Below are positions 1 to 56,792 of a DNA stretch of 64,000 nt, piece after piece. The notes beneath the pieces are model-generated. The model had not been told where the DNA came from. It saw nothing but the letters and a program-made list of their open reading frames with translations, and searched no databases. The stretch's first letter is position 1, and each line of letters opens with the position of its first letter. The position numbers and the translations under genes are program-made. The stretch spans positions 1 to 64,000 of the forward strand of contig JAQGDQ010000735.1 of NCBI GenBank assembly GCA_030141605.1. The letters are read 5' to 3'. The stretch comes from Tubiluchus corallicola (Eukaryota; Animalia; Priapulida).

Positions 1-40
1 AAATGTTTTGTGAGGAACTTACAGTTTTTTCATGGCTGTG

Positions 41-652
41 CATTAAACTATGTATAACTCAAACACCTCGGAACTGGAAAATTTGTTCGAGTTGTGCAAA
101 AGTACGAATTAGACAATGTTTGTAAGAAAACAAGATTGAATCGCTCATCAACATGGGACAGTACACTAGTAACACTGCAGCTTGTGAAAATGTCAATTGA
201 GAATTTAATCAAATATTAAACATCCATTTTGTGAAATATAATAACAGGTCCACCTCTATTGTAGTCTGAGTAGCATGGTCAATAGAATTCAGTAATAATA
301 ATATTGTGATCTACATTAAACTACGTTCATTAAGCCATGTTGATGTAGCGACCTGCTAGGGTAATTCAAGAAACCTTAGCATTTTTGTTGAAACAAGCAG
401 TCAAAGTAGTAACGTGGTGCACACTTTCACATATGATTTCTCATTTGGGAGACTGTTCAAGATAGGTGAGGTAATTTCAGTCAAAATCTTAAGAACTGTA
501 CCAGGAATTCAGTTCGAGTTACGTTATAATTCAAGGTACAGATTTCAAGTTAGGTAAAAGAAAAAATGAAAAAGAAAATCAAATTCCATAAGATATGTTC
601 AAGATACGCAAAAATTAGAGCTATACCAGTTCGAATTATACATAGTTTACTG
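41..652. mobile_element. Tc1/mariner-pogo-like MITE
   Basis: Terminal inverted repeats: CATTAAACTATGTATAACTCAAAC versus the reverse complement of the right end, CAGTAAACTATGTATAATTCGAAC. TA follows the right end. No ORF. Confidence 0.65.
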
Positions 653-713
653 TAGTACTCTTAGGTATTGCTTTGTAATTTATTTACTAAAATTTGCTCT
701 AATTCTGTTTTAG

Positions 714-1553
714 CTGCAGCTATGCTTGAGCTACTAAATGGTGACATTCAAGCAGGAGAATGGCTGCAAGAAAGACTCTGTGCAGCCATAGAATCTGTTA
801 TACAAAATGAAAAGCCTTCAAAACGGTAAAATTAATTATGTTCATTTTAAAGCAAGATTTTGTTTCATGAGCTTCGGTTACTAAAATTTAAACACTTTAG
901 TGCATTTTAAAAAGTAGAACTGCATCTTAGTGGGGCAGCTTGACTGTAAAATTCAGGTCGATTGGGCCTTTCCATTTAGAACTTCTAGAAAATAGTCCTC
1001 AAGGATTAGACACTAAAATAGCAGCCCATGTTTGGATGATTGTGTGTATTCTTGATGAAGGTAAATAGTTGGAGGCAGTACTGCAACTGAAACTGCAGAG
1101 AAGCAGTTTCTTTTGCAAACACCATCCATTTATTGGCTGTTAATGATGAGCTTGATTCTGGTCCTGCCACAATCGTCTTTATTAAGCAATCGCTGCTCTT
1201 AAATGCTCACTTTTGGTTTGTATAGTTTCGAATGTGGAAACATATCATTAACAATATGACAGGAAAATGTGATATATCATTGATGTAGAAGATGGGATGA
1301 ATGATGTAAAATGGCAGTTAAATCTAACTTGTTTGTGTTTACAAACTTGTTTAAAATTATTTTGTAAATTTATATTTGTTGATTTTTTTTCAGGACTAGC
1401 ATGGAGGCAGCTGAACACTGGCGCACTGCAGTTGTTTTTGCACAAGCTCATAATCTTCCGCTTCCTGTATCATATTTACTTGATTGTGCTGCAGAGAATC
1501 ACTGGTTGAGTTTTCTAATACATGCAGAATTGCACGGTTTCCAACCAAAAACG
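714..1553 (+). CDS. SPG11: Two internal spatacsin (SPG11) exons on the opposite strand to exons 1-17 (714-825, 1394-1553)
   Basis: tttag|CTGCAGCT..AAAACG|gtaaaa and ttttcag|GACTAGC..AAAACG|gtaatg, phases 1->2->0. They translate to AAAMLELLNGDIQAGEWLQERLCAAIESVIQNEKPSKR/TSMEAAEHWRTAVVFAQAHNLPLPVSYLLDCAAENHWLSFLIHAELHGFQPKT. This matches human spatacsin ..SSQWALVVQFCRLHNMKLSISYLRECAKANDWLQFIIHSQLHNYHPAE (recalled). Confidence 0.85.
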
Positions 1554-2071
1554 GTAATGATACTGTCAAAAAAGAAATAATAAAGAAATGAATTGTACTA
1601 GCATGCTAAATATAGCATAATTTGCATGTAACTCGAATTTAAGGAATTTTAGTAATAACTTGGCATACTCAATAACAAGAAAACATGCATTTTATGAACG
1701 TATTAAAAGTACGTAAAACAAAAATTCATGCAAAATCATAACAAAATATAAATGCAATAATGTTAAGCAAATATTATGATTATAAAAATCAAAGAATATC
1801 ATCATTACCCTTTACATGCAAATCAAAATCATGTGTTGCGAAATATTTAATATTATGCAAAATATGCAAACCACTGATGCATACAATAACAAAAACAACA
1901 CAAAAATAAAAGGGCAAATAAATAGATACGGTAATGTAGCATAGGAGCTTAGTATTATTTATATTTTTGATTGAAAAACAAAACAATTTCATCATGTAAT
2001 TTATATAAGTGTACACTGGTTCAATAACCAGGATTAAGTAAAGATTAATTTAGCCAGCAATGTCCTCTTAC

Positions 2072-5000
2072 CTACTTCATCTTGTGTGCTTAGTACATTA
2101 CTGGTCTGCCAATGAAACAGCTTTGATATATCAAAAGGACAATTTCCCTAGAAAAATAAAAATAATTAATCAACGTTTAATTAAGCTAAAACGTTTTACA
2201 ATGAAATTAATTTAAAGTTCCCAATGACATGTACAGCTTTCTACAATGTTGCTAATTAAGAAACATAATTGCAGTTATTGATTAAGCAAATTAGATTAAA
2301 TGGTTAAAACAGCTACGTTACACAAGATAAGGTTTTAAATGTGTGCTTGCATTGTACAATCGTCCATAAGTCGGCAATTAAGCTCTTCTAGTTATTCACA
2401 TATCCTTAATCATGAGGATCATTTTGATAGCAAACTCATCGCTCTATGTTATTTCTAAGCTGAGATAATCTGCATTGAAGCTGAAGTGAGCGCTCAAGAT
2501 AAATAATAATAATCTTGAGAAAATCGCTATTAAAGTTCACCACTGTATTTTGTCACGTTTCTACAAAAACACTTAGCAACTACACAAATATTGGTTGCAA
2601 TAGACTTTGCAAGAACACATTAAAGTTATGTTCAAATCCAGTAGATGGCTCTTGCTGATGAAGATCTGGGCTTGGCAACAAAGCAAAATGACTGTTTCCA
2701 GGAGCTACTATCGAAGTTTGAAAATGGAGATTTTACAATTGCAGTACAGCGATACCTCGAGATACGAAATTAATTCCTTCCGGAGGGGCTTTCGTATCTT
2801 AGAATTTTCGTATTATCAGACAAGATTTACCATATAAATGCCGTAATTTGTTTCAGCCCCCGGAAAACAGTCAAATAAAGTGTAAATATTGCCCCACCCG
2901 AAAGAAATATGTTCATTAATGACCGATCATTATATTCCTCTGCGATAGCACTTAAACGCCTGCCACTTTCATATTTTTCGGACCCATGGTTATTGAATGC
3001 GTTCACATGAGATAAGAGCACAACAAATGTTCACGTGATGCTACGAAATGCATTCTGGGAGGACCGCTGTTGGGTGGCACCTTCGATTTTCATTTTCATA
3101 TCTTGAATATTTTTTCGTTAAATGGGACGGGAATTTCTTCGAAGCCCGATTCGTATTCTGAATTTTTCGCATAGTAGGTTTTTGTAAGTCGAGGTTCCAC
3201 TGTGCTAATTTCTAGACAGAAAAGTGGGTAAAGAGTTATAAAATTTAATTTTAAGTGTTTTTAAGACTTTCTTGATAATTTGATACTAGAATATAAAACT
3301 CCTACATATTTAGCATTGGTTTTTACAAAATACGAAAAATTGACATTTGATCAAATTTTTGGTCATTCTACTTTGAAGCATCATGATGTAGTTTTAACTA
3401 TGCCGACTTATGGATGGTTTTGGTTTGCAAGCACATAAATGTAATTTAATGTAAACTGGGCTCTTTGTGCAGGGGCATTTGAATTTTCCTGTATCATTAT
3501 TAAGTGGTTCCTGAAGAGGATTATGTTTCACTTTGCACAAGTAACCACAATGAGAACAAATAACAAGCAATCATTCATTACTTTTCTGTTTTTTACAAAT
3601 ATACAAACATTTACAAACAATTCAGCATTTTTTTGAAACTAGGTTTACGCATTTCAGAGTTTTATACTAAAGAAACATGTAAAAAACTTGGAAAGAGTTT
3701 ACAGTTCCTCACACAGTTTAAATACCTTAACCCTGACTCTAACCCTAATCCAACCCTAATCCTAATCCCAACCGTAATCCTAACTCTAATCAACTTCAGG
3801 AACTAATTTCTTGTGCGTGGGGAATTGTAAACTTTGGGCAAAAACATAATATTTAGCAGCATGTTTACAACCTGCAGAAGTTGGTACACAGTGATATCTG
3901 ATGAAGAAGATCTGTTTTCCTGTTGTGGAGGAAATAAAGTGGCTCTGAGTTTGGGGTATAGAGCCAGTGCTATTTTTAAACCTTCTTGGTCATCCTCAGG
4001 GTTCTTCAATAAGACCTAAATTATGGAACAAAAAAAACTGCTAAAATTAAAACTGTAGTAGAATAAACCTTTTCACAGTTTCACCATGCACATGTGCAGT
4101 TGCTGCAGGTCAAAGGTTAACTAAGCCCAAGGCGTCGTACATAACTACATTGGTCACGTGACCTTATGCGTGGAATTACATGTAGACGAAACGCGTGAAA
4201 CACTTGGCTATTTTTTAATTCTACTACACATGTATAGTTTTAAACTAACACGTTATTCTTACCCAAAAACGGTTATCAAAATAGCAACAGCAATCCATGT
4301 AAAATGTAATAACCGAAGCGAAAATTAATGCCAGCAAGTGCTACTATTACAATAGCACGAGCCTCACTGTTTTGTCAAGTGTAAACAAATGCGTTATCTG
4401 GTTCAGATAACCCTTGACCTTGTCACGATCATCATCAATCGCTGGAACTGTGAAAAGGCTTATTGAATATATTCACAAAACATCAGACTGCAATATTTCA
4501 CAGCTAAAAACAAAACAGCAATGACAGACATTCAGAAACAAAAGGTGGTGTAAGTCAGTATACAACATAACATGTCTTTCCATCGTGAACAAAAGGCAGA
4601 CTATGAAGGTACTATTAAGCGTTATCAAGCTTAACGAATAAATAAGGTTTAATGGACTACTTATAGTTTTAAGCTGGTATTGTACCCCCGATAAGTCTTC
4701 TTTAAATGTGCAAAGCAGTTCAATTCAATTAACTTCATTTTCAAACATTTAGCTATCTGTTACTGTATCTATTGCTTTTCTACATTCATTATTTATTGTT
4801 CTACATTTATTACATTTTCTACATTTATTATTTATTTTATTTATTTATTCATTGTCTATTCATTACTTATTTGGCTTCTTTGTGCAAAATTTTCTCTATT
4901 GTAGGCTCTGCCAATATATAAACTGTTTGTTTGTTTGTATATTGTACCACTGCAGACTGCTGTCTAGAGGTCTGGACATGTTCTAAAACATTTGCAAACT

Positions 5001-17000: not shown

Positions 17001-20000
17001 GTAAGATGTCCCACTATTAATAAGATAATCAAATTAATATGTATTTAGTTTGTACTGAGAAGTACTAAACACGCATCAGTAAGAAGCTCGTACAATATAA
17101 GGATTTAGTGACTTACAGTATGTTTTTTGTTTAATCAAGTGTTTATATGAGATCAACAATTGGCAAACCAAGATGTGGCACTCAGCAGCAGGGCCTATTT
17201 AATGTTGATGAATTGACAGAGATGTTTTAGTCAAGGTAAAATGTGTATATACAACTTACCTAAGCAGAAAAAATATCGAGGGCAGTATAATGGATAAAAC
17301 AGTTACAATACAAAAATATGTACATCATTATTCTATTAAAACGTTGGAAGACTGGCACATATCACTAACTTCCTGGAAGGAAACTGCAGCTAAAAAACTT
17401 GAACGTTTCCATTGGGAAAAGTATATAATCTGAAAAAAGATCAAAAAAATGTACTAACCTGTACGTACCATGCAGATCCTTGTCACACTCAATGAAGTGC
17501 ACAGCTCCATTGAGACGACGTTTACCGCGATACCAGATGAGTATCTCAGAAGCTTGTAATACATAGAGTTCTATGTCAGTATTGTCAATGTAGCCAGCAT
17601 CAAATGGACAAGCCACTTCATCTGCTAAATTGTGACAGGCAGGACTAGACGACGATGATGAACACGATTCACTAATGTCTTCATCTTTATAAGCAAATGT
17701 CCACTGTGGAAATGAATGTCTGCTAGACACTGGTACTTCCTGTTTATCGATGCCACTTTCAGCGGAGAAGCTGTCTCCCGCCTGTATTTGTTCTTTTAGA
17801 CTAGAGGGGTTATAAGCAAAATATGACGTGAGGTTGACCTTGTACACTGTTTTGCAAGTTGACAATAAGATAAGCCAGTCATGATTTTCGGAGACTACAA
17901 AACTGAAAATTGGTTTACCAGGCAGTAAATCACACACTGGTATAACAGCTAAAGAGCTGTTAGTTTCAGCATGAAATACATCTGTGTTAAGTTAAGCATA
18001 TAACAGTAAGCAGACTAAGATAGTATAACAAGAAAACTGTATCTTACCAACTTTGATGGTTAGATTTAAACTACAGTCATACAAAAAACATATTTGTGGT
18101 TCTCCAAACTAACAGGCATAAGAATTGTATAAAACTAATTATTTACAACCTTAATTTATTATATAAATGCTCCATTGTATTATTAATTAGTCCATTATAA
18201 TTAATGGAACAAATTTTGCATTTTGCATTTTTGCAACATTTGCAGCAAAGCTGTCAATCATTATTGGAATATGGAAAGTTATTAAAGTATTAATTTTTAG
18301 AAAAATAATCACTAAAATTTTTGTGGTCATTTTACTGGTAATTTTTCTAATCTACCTGAGATTCCCTACTTAAATATATAAAATTTATGCAGTATGTCAG
18401 AGAGCACAGTGTGCAATATTCAATGGTGACTCAAACATAGTTTGCACAGTAAGCCAACAAAATTTTTTTTTAATGAATCCAATGATTTTACTACTTTGCT
18501 AAAAATGGGATGATTTTTCAGATCCTACCCCTATGAAGTACAGTAAGTCCTCGCTTAACGACGCTAATGCGCTCCAGCAAAACATGACATTAAGCAAAAT
18601 GACAAAGCCACGTTAAACAGTTTCCATAGAAAGTTATGTAAAAGTGAGATAAGTTCCAGAGGAAAACGTCAATGTTGCTTAGTTCATATAAATTAAACGT
18701 TTTAGGAGTTTATTCATATTTCTATTGCTTGATTTCTGTCTATTTGCTTGAAACTACCTACATTTCTTACCGCTACTTAGTGGTATCTCTTTCCTTAACT
18801 TTGAAGCCCAACACAATTAGTGGTCAAACACTACATTGAGAAAATTTTGTCCAGATGCCTGTTGCTATAGCAACAAGTTGTAGGCAAATTTTCTACATGC
18901 ATATTGCATAAAGACTTAGTTTGTATACAGGTGCCTAAAGGCATATAAATATCAAACATATCTCGCTTGATACAAACGGTTAACATTAAATTTCAGCAGT
19001 CATTAGGGAAACAAAAACATAAATAATTGTACTATTTTGCGTTACTAGTACATTTTTAGAACAGAATAATGCAAAACATATTGTTTTAATATTTCAAATT
19101 AGGTAAAAAAGTTGTTGATAAAAAATTGCTTCGACCAAAGTAAAAAAATTGTCACTAAAACGAAAAAAGTGTTAAATGTTCAGCGTCATTAAAAAGACAG
19201 GAAAAGTAAATGGGGAATCGTTAAGAGAGGAATTACTGTACGGTAAAAAGTATACATTTTAACACATATAATAATGCTAAAATGATTCTGAAACTTAGCT
19301 TAGAAACTTAATTAACAGGCGATGAGCACAGTTAGCAAATGACATCACAATTTAACATAATATTTCAAATGGCAAAAATGTAATGTGACCATGTTGCACA
19401 TGCTTACAAGAGCAAAAATTAAAATACAGTGCTACTGTACAGTACTGACTATGATTTACAACAAACGGGCAAATTTTCAAGTTAAAAATTTAAATTAAAA
19501 GCTTATTGTTGTGCCAACATGTGATTTCGCCACAAATGGGTGTCACGCTAAGACGGAACTTAGAGACACGGCACTTGTTTTTCTCGTACTGACCACATCA
19601 CCGAGATGCAGGTGCTGTGTTCATCTAACTAGCAAAATGCCATTTAATGGCGTGAATGTAAAATTAAACTTCAGTGCTAATAATTCTTTCATGTCAATCA
19701 TTCTTGAAAAAACAATATTTTCCTTTAAATGCATGTGGTTTAATACTGGGTCCAGTTTTGCTTCCAAAAGGATACAAATTATCCCACATTCGGACAAAAT
19801 GTACAGTACATTTTCAGTAACGTGAGCGTAAATAACTCTGGATAATACGGTTTCACTGCTACTTGCTGGTGAAGGAATCTGGTAAACTGCTGAAAGACTC
19901 AGATCTGCTGCAGAACCATCAAATTCTACCCTCAGCACAACATCACTCACAGTAAGATAGACATGCTCAGCAGCAAACTTTATGATTTTTACATCTGTTT

Positions 20001-23000
20001 CGCTATACTGACCATCTGGATAATATAAAAATAATCTGTAAATGTGCCATTCAAACTTTGGTGTTATATAAAGGTAATGACTGCACTCAAATCTCGGTTT
20101 GAGTGTAGACCTCGCTTTTATGGATATTTGAAGATGGGGCAAAATCTGGACCATTAAAAAGTCCCGCAAACTACGGACTTAGTCCGCTAGTTGGCAGGCC
20201 GTCACTTTGTTTACATCATAACATCAGTGCAACCACATACATATTTCTATAAGTGTGCTTGCAAACCAAAATCATCCATAAGTCGGCATAGTTAAAACTA
20301 TGTTATGATGCTTCAAAGTAGAATGCATCAAAAATTTGGTTAAATGTCAATTTTTTGTTTTTTATAAAAACAAACTCTAAACATATTGGAGTTTCATAAC
20401 CTAGCATCAAATTATTAAGAAAGTGTTAAAAAATACGAAGAGTTTAACTTTATAACCCCCTACCCACTTTTCTGGCTAGAAACTAGTAAAGCAATTTCTA
20501 TTTGTATTTTCAAACATCTGTATGGTAGCTAATGGAAATGGTCATTTTGCTTCGGATTGTTTCTGTAGCCAAGCCAAGATCGTCGTCAGGAAGAGCCATA
20601 CATTGCATTTAAACATAATTTCAATGAGTTCTTGGAAAGTTTATAGCAACCAACATTTGTGCGGTTGCTAAGTGTTTTTGTAGAAATGCGACAAAAAACA
20701 ATAGCGAACTTTAACAGTGATTTTTTTCAAGATTATGTGTTTCAGTGCATAGCCTGCACCCCAACTTCAACGTGGATTAACTCAGCTTAGAAGTAACATA
20801 GAGCAATGAACTTGGTACCAAAATGATTCTCATGAAATAGAGATTCAGAGTACATCGATAACTGGAAAAACGTAATTAACGACTTATGGACAATCTTGCT
20901 ATAAAAGCACACATGTATAAAAATATAGAGTCAATTACGCAGAGTTATTTGAGTCAACAGTTTTTATATACTTTGCATAGGGAGCAGCCGTACTAGACGT
21001 TTTTGAGACATTTAGGTGATTGATTCTACATTACCCTGAGTCTAATACAAGGTGCCTACTGTATTAGCTTAGTATCGGTAAATACGGACAATCGACCGCT
21101 TTTGTCCGGCAAACTGAGATATGAGTGTATTTAAAATTTACAGAAATAATGAAATAATTAAGAAGTTAATTTGACATAAGTGGTAAGAAGTGAGAGTGAT
21201 AAGTATTTCGTTACATATTTTGATGATTGAACTATGATGTTTTAATGGTGATTTTCAGGTCATTACTATACACTTGTTTGCTTTTGTTTCATATTCTTTG
21301 GCTCTATTCAGTGTTGGTATTTCCTTAATATTCTCTTGAGACTTTCTTTCTCTATGTGTGTATGAATATATATCCACTCTGAACATCAATTTAGAACACT
21401 ATAAAGTTCTCCATCCTAAATGATCATTATGGTACTCTTCTGTGCAATTAACAATGTACATTATCATATAAATATGTAGTTATTGCTGTTTGCTTGTTGC
21501 TGCATTGACAGGTAATTCAAATTCATAACTATTTAAAATGTTTAACTCTTTGAGGCTCACTCAAAGTTGTAATTACATATTATGTTTTCCTTTCTCAACT
21601 TTCAGTTTTATTGCTTTTATACCATTGCTATTATTACATTATTTACTTCATCCTTATTTACATTATTAAGTTATCAACAGAAATATGCATAATTATAATA
21701 ATTTTTCATTTAAGTAAGGTGAGTGTTTTAATGACCGTATGGTCATACATTCACCTCGCACTACACAAATTATTTTATTTTAAATTTATTGATGTGTTTG
21801 ATATTGTATTTTCTGATAGTGTGAAACAAAACTTCATAGTTCATAGTTCACATGTACTTCGAAATGGTACCTTATGCATAGAAATTGCTGCAATCACAAC
21901 ATCAGCTATTAATGCCTATTTCGTAATGTCTTTTGCAACAGAGTTTTTGTTAAAACATTAGGTGATGATGAACATAATACAAGAATTTAAATAGAAACAC
22001 AAGCTTGGAACTAGCTAACTAATATTTTCATTTTTTTGCACATCTTCTATGGGTAGGCCAAGAAACTATGCCTTTGCAAACAGATTGAAAAACTATAACT
22101 TATGAAATCTATAAGCACGACTAGTTATTAACCAGAGAACAATTATACAAGGTGTAAAATTCAAATATATCAAAGTTCTTCCATTTTACTGTTAAAGTGT
22201 GATAAGCTCATTTAAGATTTGGTAAAAACTAAAAGTGAGGGAGACAATCACAATCATGTGTAAGAAGCTCTATGTACTGGACAGTGCTGCCCTCTGAGGC
22301 CAGCAGTGCAGTTACCTCTACTTACCTGTAAGGTGATTTCATGGTTGATGACTTTAGGTACCTGGCTTTGTGAAATGCTGCAGACGCTTGGCCTTGATAT
22401 GTTGGGTCTGGTCACATGTAATTTATAGATTTGTGTCTTGTTAACTAAATTATTATTTCCTGCTGTCTGCAGTTGCAATTGGTGTTTATTGTCTGTCACA
22501 GTTTTCTAATGGTGCTCTAATGTTTGGGCAAGGATGTAAGTTGCTTTTATTTAATTTAATAATTTTTGCAGTTTTGATTAGCTACTGAAATTAACTGTAT
22601 ATGTGAAATGTTACTTTATGTAATTTGTTTGTGTATGTACTAATTTGGAGTTATTATATTCATAAAATATGCAACAATTTACTTATTTACATTTCTATAT
22701 TCTTAACAGAATAAACAACTAATGTACACACTTATGTCTGGACTTGATGTTTGGATTGGAGTGTTTGAGCATTCTTGGTCATTCTTGATGAAATGGGTCA
22801 TGCATGCTACACTCTATTTTGTTATTTTTAAAGAGACACAGTACTGCAAGTTAATTAGAACCGATAATAGCTGATACTACAAATGGTAAAACTTCTTGCA
22901 AGACAGTGTAAAATTGTACCAGCCTGTTGATCTACAGTACGATATGCTCACCTGGTTTACATTTTGTAAGCATGTTCAGCAAATCTGAACAAGCACATAA

Positions 23001-23775: not shown

Positions 23776-24205
23776 CTCGCTTCGTCTTCATATCAAGGCG
23801 ATCTCTTCAATTATAACATCTAGAAAACGGGAAATTCAAAGATCTCTTGTATTGCCGAAACACGTTTTCAACTTTTGATTATGCCGGCTTTGCTGATGCT
23901 GATGAAATGGTCAAAGAATATAACAAACCAGGATCTGTATAACAAAGTTAAGGCAGAGGAATGGACAGTTAAAATCAAGAAGTACAATAGTCTTATTTGT
24001 CGACATAGTAGTGCCTCGCTCACCTTCTTGATAAGTAAACCCTGATTTCCGTCTCTTGCACCAATCTCTCATCCACCTAATAGTAATACTATATAATAGC
24101 TGTCCAGAGCACACCCTTGTCCAGTTGTTCGTTGTTGGTTTACTCTCCTTCTAATATACCGACTGGTATTAAAATAGGAGGTTTTTCGAACGCAGTTCTG
24201 AATAG

Positions 24206-24480
24206 AATTTATGTTTGAAATTATTTACTTTATTTGCGCTCACTAATGATTCCGGTAATGAGTTCCACAGTATTACTTCGGCTTTTGAAAAACTATGCCG
24301 ATACGTTTCAGCATTAACCCCATGCTTGTACAATTTAACACTATGCCCACGTGTAATGCTTCTGTCGAGTGGAAAACCTGGTTTGCATTGATGTCAGTAA
24401 ATCCCTTAAGAATTTTGAACATTTCAATAAGTCCCCCCACGTCTTATTGTTGAAAGTCGATACAAGTCTAATTTTTGCAG
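24206..24480 (-). mobile_element. CR1-type LINE ORF2 C-terminal remnant
   Basis: Frameshifted minus-strand translation: LQKLDLYRLSTIRRG(D)LIEMFKILKG..TRGHSVKLYK..LWNSLPESLVSANKVNNFK. These are the RGDLIEVYKI / TRGH / WNSLP motifs of CR1 ORF2. Confidence 0.75.
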
Positions 24481-24922
24481 TTTCGCTGTTTGCTTATTGG
24501 CGCAACAAAAGCACAGCACACTGGTGTTTACCTAGTGACTAGTATATACTTTCTAAAAGCACAATATTGTTCCTGTAGTGTGTATGCTCAAGAGCTTCTT
24601 ATTATAAGGCACAAGTAAGAAGTTTGCGGGTTGATGATAAGAAAGTCTATGTTTCTTAGCATAGGGTATCAAGTTTATGATGGAGGTGGAGCTAAGGAAT
24701 AAGGAAAGAGCTTCTGGGTGGAAGCTAATGGTAATAATATTAAAATTACGTTCTTATAGTGCCTCTGCAGTTACATTATGTGAGTTACGGTCACCGTCAC
24801 ACAGTCTGGGATCTATTTGCAGTTATATTAATTTAAAGACGTTTACACAAATAGTTCTCTGCTTGCCTATCTTGTGGTAACCTAAGACATATATCTTTAA
24901 CTTTAGTCATCTCCAAATGCAT

Positions 24923-25282
24923 AAAACCCATTCTCTGGAACGAGGGATTGCAGTTTTTTTATTAGGACAAAGTAGATATGGCAACACCAGCATGGCTCAC
25001 TTCCTCAGAGATCAACAGTAACTAATTTACCTTCTTGCTTTCAAGAATAACTAGACAGACTGGTTCAATGACTCCTCGCTGCCATGTAATAATGTTCTGT
25101 ACAAAAGCCATTCTCTGGAACAAGGTATTGTGGTTTTTTTTATTAATACAAAGTAAATATGGCAGAACCAGCATGGCTCACTTCCTCAGAGATCAACAGT
25201 AACTAATTTACCTTCTTGCTTTCAAGAATAACCAGATAGACTGGTTCAATGACTCCTAGCTGCCATGTAATAATGTTCTGTA
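24923..25282. repeat. ~180-bp direct tandem duplication within the CR1 remnant
   Basis: 24923-25102 and 25103-25282 are near-identical (AAAAsCCATTCTCTGGAAC..CCATGTAATAATGTTCTGTA). Confidence 0.85.
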
Positions 25283-25900
25283 TCTTGACTTTAAGAAGCC
25301 TTTCGACTCTGTGCCGCATCAACATCTTTTGGTGAAGATGGAATATGCAGGAATAAGAGGCAGCCTTTTCACACATGTGGTTTCAGTACTTACTTCTTGA
25401 CAACTGCCTTCTACATGTGGTCTTAAATGGCATAAGCGCAAGTTGGAAATATGTCTGCAGTGGCATACTTCATTGCACCCTCAGTGGCCATACTGTCCTA
25501 TATAGGACAACAGTGATAGGTGTATGCTACAATTTGGTGTCAACAAGATTGGAAAATAGTGTGAAGGATGGTTATTGGAGTCTAAAAAAAAGCAAGAGCC
25601 ATCTTTTTTGTGTCTGTCCTAAGAGACAAACTCCATATTATCTTAAAAACTAACCCGTTGAGGATAAATCATCTGTTAAAGATCTTGGCTTCACAATAAT
25701 GAATGATTTATCGTGGAATGACCACATAAGCAAAATCATTTCACAAGCAAGTTATTGCATAGTGTATGATCAAACGTTTCACATCCAAGAAAGCTTCGGT
25801 AATCATTCCGCTTTACAAAGCTTTGTGCGCCCAATTCTTGAAAATGCTTCAGTAGTCTGATCACCACTGTATTCCACTCTTAAAGCCTCTTTGGAAAACG
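24923..25900 (+). mobile_element. Degenerate CR1-type LINE reverse transcriptase fragment
   Basis: QHGSLPQRSTVTNL, LYLDFKKPFDSVPHQHLLVKMEYAGIRG, VKDLGFTIMNDLSWNDHISKI and LYKA-VRPILENASVV*SP, with stops and frameshifts. Confidence 0.85.
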
Positions 25901-27029: not shown

Positions 27030-30000
27030 ATGGCTGTGGATATAATTGGAATTTTTGTACTGGTTATACTCTACTTTATCATTCTCATTATTGGTGTTTG
27101 GGCTGCAAAACGGAGCAAACAGATTCTTGGGGAACAAGAGAACAGTGATGAACCAGTTAACATGGCAATGATTGCCAATCGAAAACTTGGCACTTTTGTT
27201 GGAATCTGTACAATGACAGGTAACATTTAGTAAGAATATTGCCTAGCAACCACAAAACTTGTGTTGTGATAGCACTGAGCAATATTTATTTTTCTTCTCT
27301 CTTTCTCCAAGTTTTCCTGTTTCGCTTTTGACTTTTCTTGTTTCTGCACCACTTTTTTTATCGCTCTCCTGCTTCCTTTTTCTGAAACTATTTTTTCCTA
27401 ACTGTTTATAATTATGTGCATGCACGTTAATTCTAGCTTTATTGTTTGTTCAATAATTTCAACATAAACATATTTTCAATAATTTTCATATTTTCATAAA
27501 TTTAGTTACTTTAAAAAAATTTCAGCTACATACATCTGTGGCAGTTACATCAATGGTACAGCAGAATCGGTGGCAAATTATGGCCTTGTGTGGACTCTAG
27601 CTCCACCAGGAATATTTTTAGGAATGATAATTGGTATGTATTTTCTGTGTGTCGGCAAAAGCCCAAAAGTCTAAAAACAACATCTTACAAAAACATAGGT
27701 TGCAGTTTGAATTTTTCTATTCATTATACTCAGGTTACCTTGAAATTCTTGTGAGTATTTTTCTTACATATTATTACAGTATAAGCCTTTTCACAAGTTT
27801 CATTGTGCGCACGTACAGTTGCTGTAAGTCAAAGGTTAAGTGAACTACAGTAACAAGTCTTAACTACTTGTAATCGTTATGTGATGTGGGTAAAGCAAAG
27901 CTGTCTGTTATAACAGTTCAGTAACATCAGTTATTTTATGTGAAGTTTACTTAATTATGCATTGGTCTGTGCGTAGAGTGATTTACTAACAGGATCTTGC
28001 TTGGGAACAAGAAAAAATGAACTAGGTAAAGTTTTAGCTAGCTTTTAAACTGTTACTGTTACACTGTATGGGCTGCAAGACGTCGTCAAGTGTACACAAA
28101 TTCATTGTCTAGTACACTTAACCTTTCATTTTTTCAATATCAATTGCTGGAATTGTGAAAAGGCTTTTAAATTCACTGCATGTATAATGGTTTTTACGAA
28201 CCAACTGATTTGTTATTAAACAGAACCAAAACAGTAACTTCATATACATTATGCTCAGTGGTCTACTGAAAATAGACTGTAAGTTAAAGTTAACTGGATA
28301 TATATATATATATATATGTATACAACAATTAAAGGTCTATGTAACCCTCACGGACACTGAAGTTTTTTTCAACGCATTATTATGATTACACATAGAATTC
28401 AGAGTCTTTATTAAACAAAACAGACTTATAATTTTTTCTGGTGATTTTCGAATGCGTGCATTGCTGTAAAGATCGCCATGTTTCGCGTCTCTGGCAAGAA
28501 TGACGTGCGAGGTGCAAAAAGCATCTTTGTTTACCAATCTTTAGGTACATCGTGACTGCACTTATTACGTTATTCGTCTCGCACAACAAAAATGGCAGTT
28601 CTTCAAATTTTATACTGCTAACAACCAAATGATAAAAAATCAAAAGAAACAAGTTTTGCAGCCTCGTCTCCATTATGATTACTCTACGGCAGTAGTACTA
28701 CTAGACATGGAGCAAAAGAACTAATTAAGTTCACTAACTCGCACTATCATTTTCACGCTTCAGCCACGGATGAGCCATGCCTTGCATTTACAGCTTGTAA
28801 CTTCACAACTGCAAAAATTTACCTTCTGGGTAATTTATGAGAGCAAGTATATCCTACATTCTGCAAACAACTTAAGTGGACCTGCTCTTAAATATAGTGG
28901 CAGATTAGCTTAAGGACTGATCAGATAAATAAACGAGGTTTGCCTTAAGAGCAAGTATAGCCACATTATGTAAACCACTTAAGTAGACCTTTCTCTTAAA
29001 TTTAGCATATAATGCAATTCTTGCTGAGTTTATTAGCTAGCCAATTAACAAGCCATGAGTTATTATAGGAAATAGTGTAAAACCTGATGTGTGTCAAACA
29101 TACAAACTTACTTGTAACATATTTTTGTAGGTGGCCTGTTTTTTGCAAAGAGGATGAGAGAGCGCAACTATGTGACCCTTTTAGATCCATTTGAAGAAAA
29201 GTTTGGCCAAAAAATGGCTGGTATTTTGTTTGTTGCTGCTCTCTTTGCAGGTAATTGGCCAATGTTTTATTAGTATGGAAAATTTAAAAAAAATGGTTAG
29301 GGGTTTTTCAAATGTTTTTTATGTTGCATTTTTGCATAAAATGCAACATATTTTAAAAAAGTATATACTGCAGACTCATGTAAAGCTGTAAGGTTCCTAC
29401 GTGGCCTACTTGGTCAATTCTCCAAAGAACAATTGTGTGTAATTTGCTAAAAAAATGATTTGAAATAAATGAATTACGGAATTTAAAGTAAGTAATTAAG
29501 TAAGGTAAATGCTTTAAAAGTTCAGTTCTTAACAGTTTGTGACCATATGGCATTTTTTCTACTGACGAAGTGAATTTGTAACATATGACTTAATCTGCAT
29601 GAAATTGTCATCTAATTTTATCAATAGTTTTCTGCCCACATTGTAAATTAGTCTGTGCTTTCCTCGAATGTTGACTGCAGCTGTTTTTAATGTCTTATTG
29701 TTGAGCTTGGATTAAATTATACAGTATTATCACTGAGTTTTTCTGGCTGTCTGCATAAAATCAAACATTTTTTTTATTTGCAGCTTCAAAAATGGTAAAC
29801 ACCGTAAGGCTAAAATTCACAGTTCCCCACATGCAAGAAGTTAATTCGTGAAGCGGATTAGGGTTAGGGTCACGGTTAGGGTATTTAAATTGTGTGGGGG
29901 AATTGTAAACTACTTTCCAACCTAAAATTATTTTCTGAATTTTCATCTTAACTATTGTATTTAAACAGACATATTTTGGACGTCTTCTGTTATGGCTGCA

Positions 30001-33000
30001 TTGGGTACAAGTATAGCCGTGGTTATTAATATGGATACAACATTGTCAATCATCATATCATCCGCTGTCGCTGTCCTGTATACCGTGATTGGTCAGATGA
30101 TCTCCGTTGCTTATACTGATGTTATACAACTTGCATTTATGGCTTTTGGACTAGTAAGTTTTGGTTTTTTTGTATAAATCTAATTTTGTTATAATACTTG
30201 TCAGACAATGAGCAGAAAAAATGTTAAGAGCCCAGCATTCAAGCAAGTGGCAGGAAGTGGACCAGGGGAAGCATTGTTTTTGTCATTGCTATTGTACATC
30301 CATTGACTACAAAACTATGACTTGTTTGTACTCTTATGTCGAAAGTTTTTTATGAATGCCCTATAACCAAAGCTTGATTAATTAATGAAATAAAGCTACA
30401 GTTATGATGGACAAGTAAAGCAAACAATTGCCAATAGTGGAGGACAATAGTAACCTAAGCCAGTAGCTACTGTTTTGCTTAGAAAAGGCAAATTGCAGAT
30501 TTACAAATAAATCTGATGGCAGTTATTATTTCCTAATGTAGCAGAAAATTAATATCAAGCTTGCTAGAAGTAAATATGCTAAATCTGTCACTTATGCGGT
30601 ACATTTTAGAGTCTTTTTTGCAAACTGCTGTTCTGAGCCCGTAGTGTAAAGTTGGTATAGCCTGATTACATGAGTTCGAAAGAAGCCGCAAGTCTTGCAA
30701 GTATTCCAGAACACAACTACAAGACGATTTGGTGTTAGTAGGACTTATACACAACATTAGGCTAATAATACAATAATGTGGCTACTGCAATGCAAATAGA
30801 TTACCCTAGCAATTACTACAGCTATCACTGCAAAGAACTTGACTGTGAAATTAATAGGTGACAAACAATTAAACAAAAATACCGTAAATAACTGATGGTT
30901 TGTCACACCAGGTATATACCACAATGGATAATACTCCTATCTTATGTCTGGAGAATTGCAGACTTGATACTGTCTTACTAAATGCCTTAAAATGGTGCCA
31001 TTGTGACTGTGTTGCCTAGACTGGTGACAAAAAAGACAAAATGTGGATGTAAATAAACTCTGTTATGCAGACATAGTTAGTTTTTTTATTTATTAAGAAT
31101 ATTTATAAAATATACAGTATTATATAAACTTCAGTTATAGATCATCCGTAAAGAAAACTTTCTAGGGAAGAGTACAAACAGGTCACAGTTTTGTACCATT
31201 TGAGAACGTAATAAATAATAAATAAATAAAAATAAAAGATGAAACTGGCAGGCTATATTAGCTTTAATGCCAGCCTGTATTATGAAATGACAAACACGAT
31301 CAAGTATATAAATTTATAGTTGGTGAAATTTGCAGTATAGTAGACGAGCATTATGTTCCTTTTTGAGTTGTAGTCCACCACTTTAAGTAATATTATGAGG
31401 ATTTCATAAGTAAGGGGCTGATCAATTTCAGTATATGAAGTTTTAATGTAATCATACCCTTCAGTTAACAGTTACAATCAATTTTCTACTCATAATGTAC
31501 AAGTAGTAACATTTTTTGTAGTGAAATATCTAGTGCTGACTAAATTTATATACTAGCATGTTGGCAGTTGCTTTTTTTTCAGTTTCTCAGTTTGCCGTTC
31601 GTTTTTACCAATACTAATGTTGGAAGCATTGTTACAAATTCTGATGAGTGGTTAGGCTCTCTGCCGAGTGATGAAATAGCAGTATGGCTGGATTTCTTTA
31701 TCGTAATGGTAATGAAAGTTTAACTTACTTACTTTGAAACTTAAACAGATGTAATGGACATTTGATGATGATACAACTGCAAACTAAGATCGTTTTCTGT
31801 TGGTATTAATAACTTTTTTTTACCAACTGTGAGGCTGGTAAAACCAAATTTTAACCAAAGATTTTTACTCCCTCACTAATTTGTAGTAAAAATTTTTGGC
31901 ATGTTTCTTCAAGTGCTCTTGGCGTGTTTCTTCAAGTATGCTTTGACGCAATAGTCAAGTACATTTGGCTATTCGTCGGTCAAGATCGTGCTTCCATGAT
32001 AAAAGACTTGTGCGAAACGACAAGAACCACAAAGAGTTATAAACTAAGTCTTAAATGGAATTCTAAGGCCAATAAACATTTTCTTAACACAATTATTAAA
32101 CCATCTATAAAACGGAGCTAACCAGATTCTGCTCACAATTTACTTTGGCAACATTGCAAACTGCTGAACATTGTCATATTTCCGGTGAGTTCAAATTATC
32201 CATTCATATCCTTTTATTTTCAGATATTTGGTTCTATTCCTTGGCAATCATACTTTCAGCGAGTTTTGTCAGCCAAATCTGGTCAACATGCACAGGTGTT
32301 TTCAATCATTGGCTCATTTGGTGCTCTTCTGCTTGCTGTTCCGCCAGTTCTTTTGGGTGCAGCTGGAGTTGTAGCTAGTATGTTATTATTAGCGATTTAG
32401 TATACATTAATCATAATGTAATCATTAATGGGGCCAAACAATTGGTTCTTCTCTAATTCATGGTTCAAGATTTCTCTCTAATTAGGACTGTCTATGGTCA
32501 GTTTTTTGTTTTCTGACTATTACAGTAACTAACAATCATTATATGAATTGTATGCCAATTGCCCACATTATTGGATATAATGTTTTCTCATAGAAGTAGT
32601 ACTGCTAAGTTCAGTTTGCTCTTGTATATCAACCATAAGTCATCTGTAAAACTTCTTGGCATAAATCGAGCGCAAGAATTTCGTATTAATTAGTAAAATT
32701 TATCTGTATGAATTAAATGCAATGATCATTAACTCGATACATAATTTACCTTTTGTGTAGTATGATGTATCTTTTAAGTCTTAAGAAAAAAGTGTCATAT
32801 TAAAATAATAATCTCTACATCAGAAATGATGAAAAATTAAGATGTATGGAAGATTTGTCTAGTTCCTTTGTAAATTGCTCTTTCTCTATGTTTTTGTGTA
32901 TTTTCTTCATACTTTTATTTTTTTCTGTTTTTGCTTTGCAATCTTTGTCATGTAAGAAAATTTTTAGTATATGATAAAAATTTGTATGCTTCATTTAAAT

Positions 33001-36000
33001 GACAGCAAATAAGTCTATTTTCGAGGCTTTCTATTTTTCATGATTAATTACTTTTTGCTTGTCTCTTATTTTAAATATTTGTACTAAGCAAAAGCTTGTT
33101 AATAAGCCTTTTCACAGTTTCTTTTTGCACACGCGCAGTTGCTGTAGGTCAAAGGTTAAGCATTCCACCGCAACTAGTCTTAACTATAACCGTCATGTAG
33201 TTGAGGATAAAGCAAAGCCCAGTCCAGTAACTTCAGTTGTTTTACATTGCTGGAACTGTGAAATGGTTTATTCTTGGAAACATTTTTGTTCCATAACAAT
33301 TTGGGACACCGCTTGCAATGATTGTTCTACAATGAAAAATAGCATTTTGTTTCAGATTGGACAGACACATCATATGGTGCGAGTCCAGTTGCAAACAACG
33401 AGAGCGAAAAGATGCTGCCTTTAGTTTTAGACAACTTTACTCCACCTGCCGTATCATTACTTGGTAAGAAATGGCACTTTCATAGTACTTTGGTTAATCG
33501 TGCGCGTTTCTTTTTTTAACATAGGATCGTGTACCAAAAAATGCATCATAAAAAGATCACCAAAAAGAAAAAAATAGATTTTAGCCCCTAAGTATATGCT
33601 AATATAAGGAAAGTTCCAAAGAAGAAGCTCATGGTACAATGTTCATTAATTTTTGTTGGGATATAATAGAGGTTTTACAATAGAATGTGATGTTATTGGA
33701 TGTTTACTGAAAAACAAAGAATTGCTTAGTAGCTTTCAAACAGAAGTTGGTTATCTCATTTTTGGCCCGTTTTGCTTTCAAACAGAATTTTGTATTAAAA
33801 ACAACCAAAACCAGTGGCCTGTAAAGAGTGTATTATACGTTTGACTCTGTTTTTCTTGTTTCAGCTACAATATGACTTTTCTGCAAAGGGAATGTGTGTT
33901 CAACTTAATATTCCGTGTTTTGACACTATAATTCTAAAATGTCTTTATTCACTTAAAGGAAAACCGGATAATTGTGTAAACACGAGTTCATAATAAAGAA
34001 TGCTCTAAAATATTGAAAACTACAATAGCTTATTTTAAATCAAAGCTTAGATTAAATAATAATTACCTCTGATACTGAAATTTTGTTAAACTTTCAAAGC
34101 TACGCCGGCTCAGTGAATCTATTAAGATTGGCAGCGGCGCCTTTTTGTCACATGCACATGGCCGACAAATAAAAGGCGGTACCATGATCATGAACTGCTG
34201 TGTTAGTTTCATGACGTCATATGATGTAAAGCCCACTTTTCGTGACATCATGCATTTAAACAGTACTGTAACACCTATGCAAATGTGCTTGACGCACAAG
34301 TGAAGACGCCTGCAATTGCACAAACTGTGGTTAGTTTCTGACGTAAGCAATAACTGTGTTCGGTTGCCGTTAATTAACTTTCTAAGCTAATTATTCAAAC
34401 ATAAGGAACAATTGTTAACTTTTATAGGCAAGAAAATGTATATTTTGGATAGTAAATTAAAATGAGATTGAATCTAAACAATCGTCCGGTCTTCCTTTAG
34501 AAACAGACTGTCTGTAAGTTGTAAAACTTTGGTGCTGAGCATATGGAACAGTGAATGTAGGTTTCAATCAAAAATTCACCCGCACTGGTTGAAAATTGTA
34601 TATGTACCAAACAGCCAAATGTTATTTTTACTGTAATTTTTTTGCTGAGATTTTACTGTATATAATGTGAATGAAATGTCCGGGGATGTGGAGGTGGTGT
34701 TTGTATGTGCTGTATATAATATTGTCTTTTATTTATTTTTGCGGTATGCTATTATGTTTTATTTTATGCCTTTTCTAAATTTCTAAAATAAAGGTTTAAA
34801 CTGAAATTTAATTCAATTTTTATGGTGTGTACTTTTTAAGCTGGACTTGGTATAGATGAAGAAAGAGTTTAAGCTGGACTTGGTATAGATGAAGAAAGAG
34901 AGACAGTGGCATGTGCATAAGAATGCCATGTGTGTATGTAGATGACCAGATGTCCATACCTAGGCCACTCTTGAAGAAGATTCAAATGCCTCAATATTTT
35001 CCAAATGCACCTAAAACTGCCATTATATTTTCGCATGACGTTTCATTGCAATGTATGTCATAGTTGAAAACAAAACAGAACTGAAGCTTATGATGTTTTA
35101 TCATTAAAAATTATTTGTAGGTTTATGTGCCATTGCGGCTGCTGTGATGTCATCAATGGATTCTGCCATATTGGGATCCAGTTCCATGTTTACGCACAAC
35201 ATTTACAAAATTTTACTGCGACCCAAGGTATATAACGCTTTCTTTTCGTGCATGATATGTGGTATTTGGCGTGCAATATGCCTGTGCAGTATGTTGTGTA
35301 TGATAAATTCGTAAGTATAGTGATGAAAGCTTCTCCTTTTTAATGACTGACTAAATTCTTGTCCCAAAACACAAAACAGTTTGATATCTAGAATAAAAGA
35401 TTTTATTTTGATATTTGAAGTCTCTTATTTGCAAACAATGCCTAGTTTTAATGAAAAACAGAGTTGTAATAAGCTGAATTAATACAAATCACAGAAAGCT
35501 GCTTTTTCTACTAATTTATCTGTATGAGTGAGAGGACTATATGTTGGCACATCATGTTAACTTAAATTGCTATATGAAAACATCCAGAATGTGTATCGGG
35601 AAATGTAGGAAATGCGGCCATACTATTAAAGTTACACTATGAATTTGAATACCACAAGAGCATAGCAGTCATAAATTAAAAAGAGGAGACACTTGCACAC
35701 TACACAATATTATTTTGGATGAGGTATTCCGTGAATTTAAATATTTCGAATTCCTGTTTGACCTTTTTGTATATGTCACCTTGAATATGACTGTTTGAGA
35801 AATACTTTGCAGTATAAGTATCATTTTCTAATTTTTCTAATTTCACTTTGCAACTCGCATACTGCAGGTAGTTTACTGTTACTAGTATGTTGTTAGTAGA
35901 CTATAACTATATTATTGACGCAGATGCATATACAAAACATTTTTTGTGAAATTATGCTGAGCAGCTTGTTTTCAACTGCTAGTTTTATGAAATCCAAAAC

Positions 36001-36720
36001 TTCCTTATGTTCATCTTGTTGTCTTTGGCATTTGGCTTCAGAGGCAAGTTGCTCTAAATTATTGTTTTAGCAGCTGAATTCATATAAAGAATTCTCACAT
36101 AGCAAAATAAAAGTTCTTTTCTTTTTCAGGCATCAGGGAAAGAGCTGCTGTATGTTCAACGTGTGTCAATAGTAGTAGTAGGCGTGGTCTCCTGTACAGT
36201 AGCATTGACTGTTTCAACCATTTATGGAATGTTCATTATAGCTGCTGATCTGGTTTTTGTGGCTCTTTTACCACAACTCATCGCATCCGTATACTTTACC
36301 CGTGTGAATACGTACGGATCGTTTCTTGGCTTTCTTACGGCAGTTGTTCTACGTGTTCTAGCTGGTGAACCTTCGTTGCAGTTACCAACCTACATATTTT
36401 ATGGAGGTTTATATGACGCGGAGAAAGGACATTTGTTTCCATATCGGACGTTTGCTATGTTGTCATCTTTGACATTGATTCTCAGCATATCCTATATCAT
36501 GTTCTGGTTATTTAAATTTTGCAAGCTCCCGCTATGTTTCGATATTTTACAGTGTTTTAGTGAAGAAATAAAAACTACTCAACCAGAAAAGATGGTAGTA
36601 GAAAATAGAGCTTTCTGGGCAAGTGAGAATTTTCATAACTTCAAAGTGGCTGAAGTGAATCAGCCTTTAGGCCGGTCGAGTGAGTGGCCTGATGGTGAAA
36701 ATCACATTTGTAAATTTTGA
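27030..36720 (+). CDS. SLC5A7: Sodium:solute symporter, SLC5A7/high-affinity choline transporter (CHT1)-like, 9 exons, 562 aa
   Basis: Exons 27030-27219, 27526-27633, 29131-29250, 29969-30153, 31583-31708, 32224-32377, 33356-33463, 35121-35227, 36130-36720 (1689 nt, phases consistent). Family motifs: [86 protein letters not shown]. It may be a paralogue rather than the true orthologue. Confidence 0.92.
27779..28169. mobile_element. MITE family B, copy 2
   Basis: ATAAGCCTTTTCACAAG..TTGTGAAAAGGCTTT, with the same internal sequence as copy 1. Confidence 0.78.
29814..29911. mobile_element. Short foldback element with TTAGGG-like repeats, copy 2
   Basis: Inverted homologue of 3696-3833 with fewer TTAGGG units. 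Confidence 0.7.
33101..33272. mobile_element. MITE family B, copy 3 (internally deleted)
   Basis: AATAAGCCTTTTCACAG..CTGTGAAATGGTTTATT; both ends retained in only about 170 bp. Confidence 0.75.
33957..34496. mobile_element. Kolobok-like MITE
   Basis: TTAA|AGGAAAACCGGATAATTGT..ACAATCGTCCGGTCTTCCT|TTAG: TIRs starting AGG, with a TTAA-like target site. Confidence 0.65.
34835..34900. repeat. 33-bp tandem duplication
   Basis: TTTAAGCTGGACTTGGTATAGATGAAGAAAGAG occurs twice in tandem. Confidence 0.85.
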
Positions 36721-39582: not shown

Positions 39583-54440
<14,858 letters not shown>

Positions 54441-56792
54441 AGAGAAAAACTGTCAGCATATGAGAACTCGCCTACATTCTGAAAAATTAAAAAACTTGTT
54501 TTAATGAGTAACTGAAGTTTGTCAAAAAAGATTTGTCAAAAACCTTATAGAAGCCAGGCATCACTGTAACCTCATTTCAGACCCTCACTTCAAAATTTTA
54601 GGCATATATGGAATTTACTGGGCAATCTTTTTGGGCTTCGTAACACTGTTCTTAAACCATGTTTTCATTACTACGACCTAGGAACTCACTAGAGTTATTG
54701 ATTCCTGATCGATTATTTTAGTGCTTGTGAGCTGACCTGCTAGAAATGTTGCTCCTACCTGGGTGTTGAGGCATTACTGTTGAAAATATTGGGACAGAAT
54801 TCATTCCCATTATTTTTGGCATTTGGCAGCTTGCACGAATCACTGAAGGATCTAACGGTTAGCCCTAATGGAATGACAGCTCAGCTTTTCATCCTGTGTG
54901 CATTAGTTCACTTTGATTGAAACATTTTCCAAAGCTAAGCATGGGCAAAAATGGTCAGGTTGTAGCATTTTTGTCATTTTCTTATAATTATTATTTACAG
55001 ATCGTTTATCAAGTGTGTACACTACCCTGAGTCCCTGATAATAAATATCTTTACCTTAGTCCCTTGCTTCCTGAAAAAGCTCCTCGGACCACCACGAAAC
55101 TCTAATGTCGCCACTTATCTGCCAGATGAATTCTTACATTAAAACGCACACAAAACGTTTGAGTTCTGATCGTTTCTTATACGATGTTGACTTGCTTTTT
55201 TGTCCTGTGTCAAACTGCAGTGTTGATTAGACTAATTAGATTGCAATTATAATTCACAGACATCCAGGTGCCCGGAACGGCTATTAGTGACCTGTAGACA
55301 AGTTTCAATCTTGGGCGAACTAGTTTTTTTTTCATTAATAAATTATCGATTAGTGATCGTGAGTAGAATGGATTTTCTTGTATTAACTTGGTTTCCCCAG
55401 TGCCAAATGCATATATCGACACGTATCTACACAATGATTCCACTGTAGCACTGCAGGAAAGGTATGGTATGATCAGTAATTAGTGATCGTGATTGATTTA
55501 TTAAAAAAAATAATGCCTGCTGCTCGTTCTGGGATCGAGTGATATCAACTACATTCATTTATGTGTGATTTAAGGTAACAGCAGCTGCTGCAGAGCGAGG
55601 GCGGTACGACAAAATATGTATTCATCACACTGCTTTGTCTTTGCGCAAAACGAAACGCTAGGTAGAAAACAGGGACGACGTAATTAAGTTTATCAAACTA
55701 AATATATTAATGCATTGTTTTTGTTACGTAATTGGGCGGACTGCAAACATGAATCCAGCATGCAACACCAGAACTCGTCACTAATACTGAATTATTGTGG
55801 TGGGACCGGAATCTATCATTTTTGGCTAACTGGCAACTCTTTAAGATGAGGCAATGAACTGGCAGAGGCGTAAAGGCGTATTAAACACGTTTAAATGTGC
55901 ATGCATCCTTCCTCAAAGAAAAGGAAGCAAGAATTTCACCTATAGCAGAAGCAATATTTGTGGCAACAAAACACCCATTTACTAACTAAGCACATTGTTG
56001 CGCAACTTCAGGGACATGTATATAAAAATACGTCAGCACTATTCAGTTGTTCCCTTCACTTGTACCACTTTAATGTAACACGTGATTCCTAAGCATCTGG
56101 ATCGGCTAAACACATGATTCCTTGGTACTTGGATCCGCCGAGTTGCATGGGAAGAGTTACAGCTGATAATAGACAGAAATTCTAATAACAATAGAAAAGC
56201 TGTCTACAGACAAGCAGCAGTTACCATAGACACTTGATCACTAATATCTCCATACATTGTCGTTGATTTGAATAGAAGCAAGGTTAATATTTTATTTATG
56301 AGACATACGTAACCGAAATCATATTGCAGGTGACACGATGTTGCTAATAGAGCAGGCAGAAAAATTATATTTGTTAAGCATTCAGCGATAGCTATTAGTG
56401 TTATTAATTTTTAATATCACCAATATCAACAAGCGACTAGGAGATAAACCTGACAAACTTAGAAAGATACACAACCAAACCAAATGGAAAAAACAAAACG
56501 TCAAATGCCGTCCAATTTTCGAATAACTACTGTTAAAAAATAAACGTACTCAAAAGTTCGTGTCGCCTATTGTACGATCAAGCAGAAATAAAATAGTATA
56601 CCTAAAATTCGACTCATTCGAGCATCCGCATGGATTGAACATCTATTAAGCAAAAATCACAGACAATTTAACGGATTTTTAATGTTGTTTAGAAACTTTG
56701 TGACTAAAGTTCTTACAAATACTGTGATGCAGCTGTTTACTATTAGTATTTTTTTCGGCAGTTTATAAATAACCCGTAAAGCTACAAACACA

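Follow-up and report, generated by a model that had tools for sequence, protein, structure and literature searches.

Head-on spatacsin exons in a Tubiluchus corallicola contig probably come from an inverted chimera or misjoin

The spatacsin gene (SPG11) is split across both strands in the window, a stretch of 64,000 nucleotides without N from Tubiluchus corallicola (contig JAQGDQ010000735.1, positions 1 to 64,000): two plus-strand exons face thirteen minus-strand exons head-on, and the facing splice donors are separated by 518 nt (1554-2071). We consider it probable that this arrangement is an inverted template-switch chimera or a misjoin that entered the assembly, the underlying gene being ordinary and collinear. 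The species itself most likely lacks the head-on feature, and how the odds are divided between an artefact and a real allele is a matter of judgement.

Both parts show spatacsin homology, in order along the protein, and each is 34-47% identical to its nearest named relative. On the plus strand, the flipped block holds two internal exons bounded by AG and GT. The first (714-825) has an open frame, is entered in phase 1 and left in phase 2, and corresponds to positions 1133-1165 of a profile of five spatacsins; the second (1394-1553), at the end of the block, closes with a phase-0 donor and corresponds to positions 1166-1223 (69 bits). Spliced together they keep an open frame with no stop, and the encoded stretch has 45-47% identity to P0003, a Logan protein, and to P0004, the spatacsin of Priapulus caudatus (XP_014665063.1). 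The stretch 1395-1553 also matches residues 1336-1385 of human spatacsin (8yad_B) with an E value of 1.2e-10. Exon 714-825 alone is a weak match to the five-spatacsin profile (4.5 bits), yet it lies in register, ranks first among the frames of the window with a local profile (iE 0.001), and falls inside a single 877-nt contig (298-1174) of sequencing run X1. A full profile search gave 46 matches, all of them at most 56% identical and none from the same species; a word-index protein search with the plus exon gave 0 of 3 candidates, and five metagenome loci drawn from 440 pattern matches had no tblastn match to eight spatacsins.

On the minus strand, the last spatacsin exon (2072-2147; AG..GT, phase-1 donor) corresponds to profile positions 968-995 and is matched by tblastn to residues 602-632 of P0003 and 769-791 of P0004. 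Twelve further consecutive AG..GT exons with matching phases lie upstream of it, between 16724 and 3872: 16724-16604, 14178-14022, 12980-12820, 11880-11644, 11049-10870, 10093-9885, 8702-8497, 7564-7366, 6631-6431, 5725-5631, 5317-5169, and 4015-3872. The spliced frame of all 13, from 16724 to 2072, is free of stops. The last 11 encode 616 residues, with 36% identity to P0003 over 628 columns and 34-38% identity to the Priapulus protein. The head-on layout had been proposed by a sequence-only reading of this DNA, and our analysis bears out its coordinates, strands, splice sites, and in-frame splicing, as well as the phases that it gave for the donors after 1553 and at 2072. It had also counted the minus-strand exons from 1 to 17, with the exon at 2072-2147 as number 17; we confirm 13 consecutive in-frame exons but not the number 17. 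Upstream of these 13 we found one exon with an approximate acceptor, an open frame from 17991 to a donor at 17459 that is in phase with the 16724 exon; the acceptor that we guessed, at 18014, introduces the one stop. This frame and another long one on the minus strand, at 20178-19624, are the probable first exons of SPG11, with approximate boundaries. The frame 20178-19624 had no significant match among eight spatacsin references, and a Pfam search of these probable first exons (17459-20178) gave no match.

The minus-strand and plus-strand parts are separated in the protein by approximately 135 residues according to the five-spatacsin profile, instead of the roughly 120 first suggested. As had been claimed, the intervening segment is absent from the window: profile searches of its frames on both strands gave nothing for these ~135 residues (best iE 0.67), nor for the C-terminal half of spatacsin (best iE 1.6), while control profiles in the same search recovered all three known exons. 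The window codes for approximately the first 55% of spatacsin, with a hole of ~135 residues, and the Spatacsin_C domain (PF14649), found in P0003, lies beyond it. Exons are intact on both sides of the join. Since the two parts cover separate stretches of the protein and both have P0003 and Priapulus P0004 as their closest references, we agree with the earlier view of one gene with an inverted internal block, as opposed to two paralogues. We infer that a single inversion, with breakpoints in the introns after the last minus-strand exon and after 1553, would be the sole one-step route to facing donors.

We then compared the window with Logan contigs of runs X1, X2, and X4 (sample S1) and X3 (sample S2, from a separate study) over positions 1-5000, with a close-up of 1380-1720 in X1, X2, X3, and X6. 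The close-up comprised 60 contigs (21, 20, 19, and 0, respectively; the empty X6 is a run that we guessed to be RNA, and it has no bearing on expression). In each of X1, X2, and X3 one contig matches the window up to 1574 and then continues with 182, 86, and 78 letters, respectively, of the same non-window sequence, whose first 30 letters differ at a single position between S1 and S2 and whose first 20 letters have no match in the window. An X4 contig also ceases to match, at 1572, with 21 letters left over. Depth in bins 1524-1559 equals that of the lone diverging contig of each run (135.1, 13, and 11.7), so that not one of the 60 contigs over 1380-1720, which come from simplified graphs, spans the join by 31 letters in both directions. 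Three runs from two samples and two studies thus part from the window at 1574 and share what follows. Each sample has one or more alleles that lack the join at 1574/1575, which is not a fixed feature of the species. A head-on layout common to the whole species is therefore unlikely. In X4, unique bins have depths of 0.31, 0, 0.29, and 0 to the right of the join vs 3-8 to the left, and we did not count these gaps in cover as evidence.

Left and right of the join, S1 has contigs identical to the window (1145-1343 and 1314-1574 in X1; 2001-2398 in X2), and S2 matches it letter for letter at 1040-1515 and 4441-5000 but diverges from it at 1574. At 913 and 938, the window has letters that none of the three S1 runs shares. 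At 1145-1343, S1 has two alleles, one equal to the window and the other differing by 13 substitutions and 7 gap letters over ~200 nt; heterozygosity is high there. S1 may be the assembled animal, and heterozygous. It has a single contig path per allele over 298-1574, and X1 depth over the plus-strand exons is 135-138, vs 118-149 in unique contigs of the minus side. The depth of the diverging X1 contig, 135.1, falls between the expectations for a heterozygous join (99-130) and for no such join (130-168). Graph simplification can remove paths such as a link of ~50 letters that leads out of unique DNA and into a deep repeat. Logan contigs are described as simplified graphs (10.1101/2024.07.30.605881), so that a short heterozygous link into the high-depth repeat could have been lost.

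The strand switch itself can be placed at 1574/1575. The 21 nt that start the intron after the second plus-strand exon (1554-1574, plus strand) align with the X1, X2, and X3 contigs and are common to both samples. Their last 7-8 nt (CAAAAAAG, 1567-1574) are common to the unique intron and to a repeat family: unique contigs stop matching at 1574, and repeat contigs start matching at 1567-1569. At a random join, 7 or 8 common letters would be expected with a probability of ~0.002 or 0.0008, given the base composition. The repeat occupies 1567-2030 and is likely part of the intron following the last minus-strand exon; the plus exons and the last minus exon have the depth of unique DNA, whereas summed depth is approximately tenfold higher over ~1570-2030. 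Other copies reach 50-75 letters further left, with a common motif, and between 1574 and 2009 the window is matched by a series of overlapping contigs, so that the copy in the window is cut at the join. Its motif from the left has one match in the window vs 2.2 expected, which is not above chance. On the other side, unique contigs of X1 and X2 at 2001-2398 agree with the window from end to end, showing that in S1 the repeat is attached to the minus-strand side, as in the window. In the window, the 518-nt interval consists of an intron start, the repeat, and another intron start. We found no long inverted repeat pair and no recombinase-type site at the join. A scan of 1554-2071 for bacterial promoters and terminators gave 2 sites vs 4.6 expected, with models that are bacterial and unsuited to an animal.

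Further from the join, a repeat of very high depth lies at 2333-3435 (summed X1 depth up to ~620,000 at 2339-2505). It has an inverted second copy (74-85%) at 20254-20920, just upstream of the 5' end of SPG11. Recombination between long inverted repeats was considered as a cause and rejected: these two copies are the only large pair, they do not bracket the join, and the last minus-strand exon, outside the pair, has the same orientation as the exons inside.

If the arrangement is a chimera, copying that had reached the repeat, in the intron that follows the last minus-strand exon, would have jumped to the other strand at a point a few kb down the gene, an A-tract 14-21 nt into a later intron, and would then have returned across the two plus-strand exons. 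With ~135 codons missing, and given the mean exon (163 nt) and median intron (776 nt) of the gene, the two joined sites would lie ~4-6 kb apart. The gene in the animal would be cis-spliced to full-length spatacsin. One event at one site would explain both the strand switch and a join that is not shared, which favors a chimera or a misjoin. Assemblers do not join on 8 letters, so the join was likely present in a sequenced molecule, whether a library chimera or real DNA. Inverted joins of this kind are reported to be the most frequent chimeras of whole-genome amplification, where 85% of chimeras are given as inverted, 337 of 475 as inverted and less than 10 kb apart, and complementarity as 2-21 bp (Lasken and Stockwell, 2007; PMC1855051). 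The join in the window is likewise inverted, has 7-8 nt of complementarity at 1567-1574, and is predicted to span less than 10 kb; it is unseen in the contigs of other runs, which can drop a heterozygous link. Amplification chimeras are also described as entering long-read assemblies and causing misassemblies (10.64898/2026.06.11.730069). Some observations count against this reading. The chimeric fraction of unamplified HiFi reads is given as 0.8% in one study (10.64898/2026.06.11.730069), and amplification of the DNA that was assembled is only assumed here. In a symporter gene further along, two Pfam-matched exons lie in order, indicating that the window is not generally scrambled. There is no fold-back duplication in the window; its expected place is to the left, and the reciprocal side also falls outside. 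Read as a chimera or misjoin, the join matters only as a flag on the assembly: an SPG11 model taken from this contig would be truncated in error, and the assembly may contain other short inverted joins of the same sort.

The same evidence from the join, i.e.: the switch at 1574/1575 and the microhomology, would also be left by a real, non-fixed intragenic inversion of ~4-6 kb, restricted to the assembled haplotype and produced through microhomology-mediated repair or replication template switching, which we regard as possible but rather unlikely. Microhomology-mediated end joining (MMEJ) in living cells is reported to leave this signature, and germline intragenic inversions to occur in healthy genomes (PMC13484493). 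As presented in that source, inversion alleles arising by MMEJ or NAHR resemble the window in the reversal of an internal exon block, intronic breakpoints, microhomology, a repeat at the breakpoint, and a predicted loss of function; the window differs in that its join is without read support and that only one of the two breakpoints lies inside it. A window without an N gap is in agreement with a real allele, as are the S1 contigs identical to it on both sides of the join, if S1 is the assembled heterozygote; the X1 depth, lying between the two expectations, does not speak against heterozygosity. Absence of the join from the S1 and S2 contigs argues in the opposite direction, and S2, identical to the window on the left and divergent at 1574, shows that a window-like left flank does not imply the join. 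An exon-breaking inversion in a conserved gene would also be expected to be rare. The allele is predicted to be a recessive null, since skipping the flipped block would join a phase-1 donor to a phase-0 acceptor, leading to a frameshift and to the loss of the Spatacsin_C half; a real allele would thus be an ordinary recessive loss-of-function variant. A polymorphic inversion null and a misassembly were the two explanations ranked likeliest from the sequence alone, and that ranking holds. Far less probable is that the plus-strand exons are a displaced or duplicated piece (a second copy or a transposed fragment) or belong to a segment that inverts somatically. Sequence to the left of the window is out of view, which leaves some room for this reading, but S1 has one contig path per allele over 298-1574, at a depth near that of the unique minus-side contigs, and both parts would need to end at complementary places. 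A programmed invertible segment, put forward in the sequence-only reading, is not supported: a short microhomology leads into a truncated repeat, and neither a long inverted repeat pair nor a recombinase-type site was found at the join.

Trans-splicing of opposite-strand transcripts, the other proposal made from the sequence, is not supported, given a join that is not fixed and contigs of X1, X2, and X3 that continue differently. It could be preserved if all animals had the head-on layout and, in the haplotype of the window alone, a later microhomology deletion of at least ~230 nt had erased the old breakpoint; full-length mRNA would then be made through two trans-splicing steps, from the minus-strand pre-mRNA into the plus-strand block and back out. 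Deletions between short direct repeats are common, all exons are intact, and the 182-letter continuation may rejoin the repeat. Trans-splicing between opposite strands does exist, as described for Drosophila mod(mdg4) and lola (PMC6237743). We nevertheless find this scenario highly improbable, the least likely of all: it requires a second independent event within the same 518-nt interval, removing the breakpoint, while the content of that interval is already explained, and it requires a plus-strand promoter and two trans-splicing steps, where in mod(mdg4) the common exons are followed by a single terminal exon. The assembled window does share with mod(mdg4) and lola the presence of coding exons of one protein on opposite strands. 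As described in PMC6237743, theirs is a fixed layout of alternative terminal 3' exons with their own promoters, a single trans step, and a gain in isoform diversity. In SPG11, in contrast, both plus-strand exons are internal, with an acceptor and a GT donor, two trans steps would be needed, and the join is not fixed. Among the titles and abstract openings listed from the open-access literature, we found no example of an animal in which double trans-splicing rescues internal exons. If true, this would be a constitutive animal gene rescued from an inversion, unlike the terminal-exon systems of Drosophila; it would mean that double trans-splicing can maintain the function of an animal gene that has suffered an internal inversion, and only in this case would the arrangement be of wide interest.

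The window contains other features to the right of SPG11. The symporter gene mentioned above is a multi-exon sodium:solute symporter (29965-36717, plus strand) in which two exons match PF00474 at profile positions 105-163 and 334-404, and which may resemble a high-affinity choline transporter. A gene on the minus strand (42558-54452) has an open frame of 384 codons (53301-54452), along with short frames rich in Cys and His (42558-42770 and 51657-51860) that are presumably akin to castor/CASZ1 zinc fingers; a Pfam search of this gene gave no convincing match. A long trinucleotide microsatellite at 51886-52218 gives poly-Tyr and poly-Asp frames. Frames at 24172-25857 are presumably decayed pieces of a LINE reverse transcriptase, and this region carries a 180-nt tandem duplication (24923-25282).
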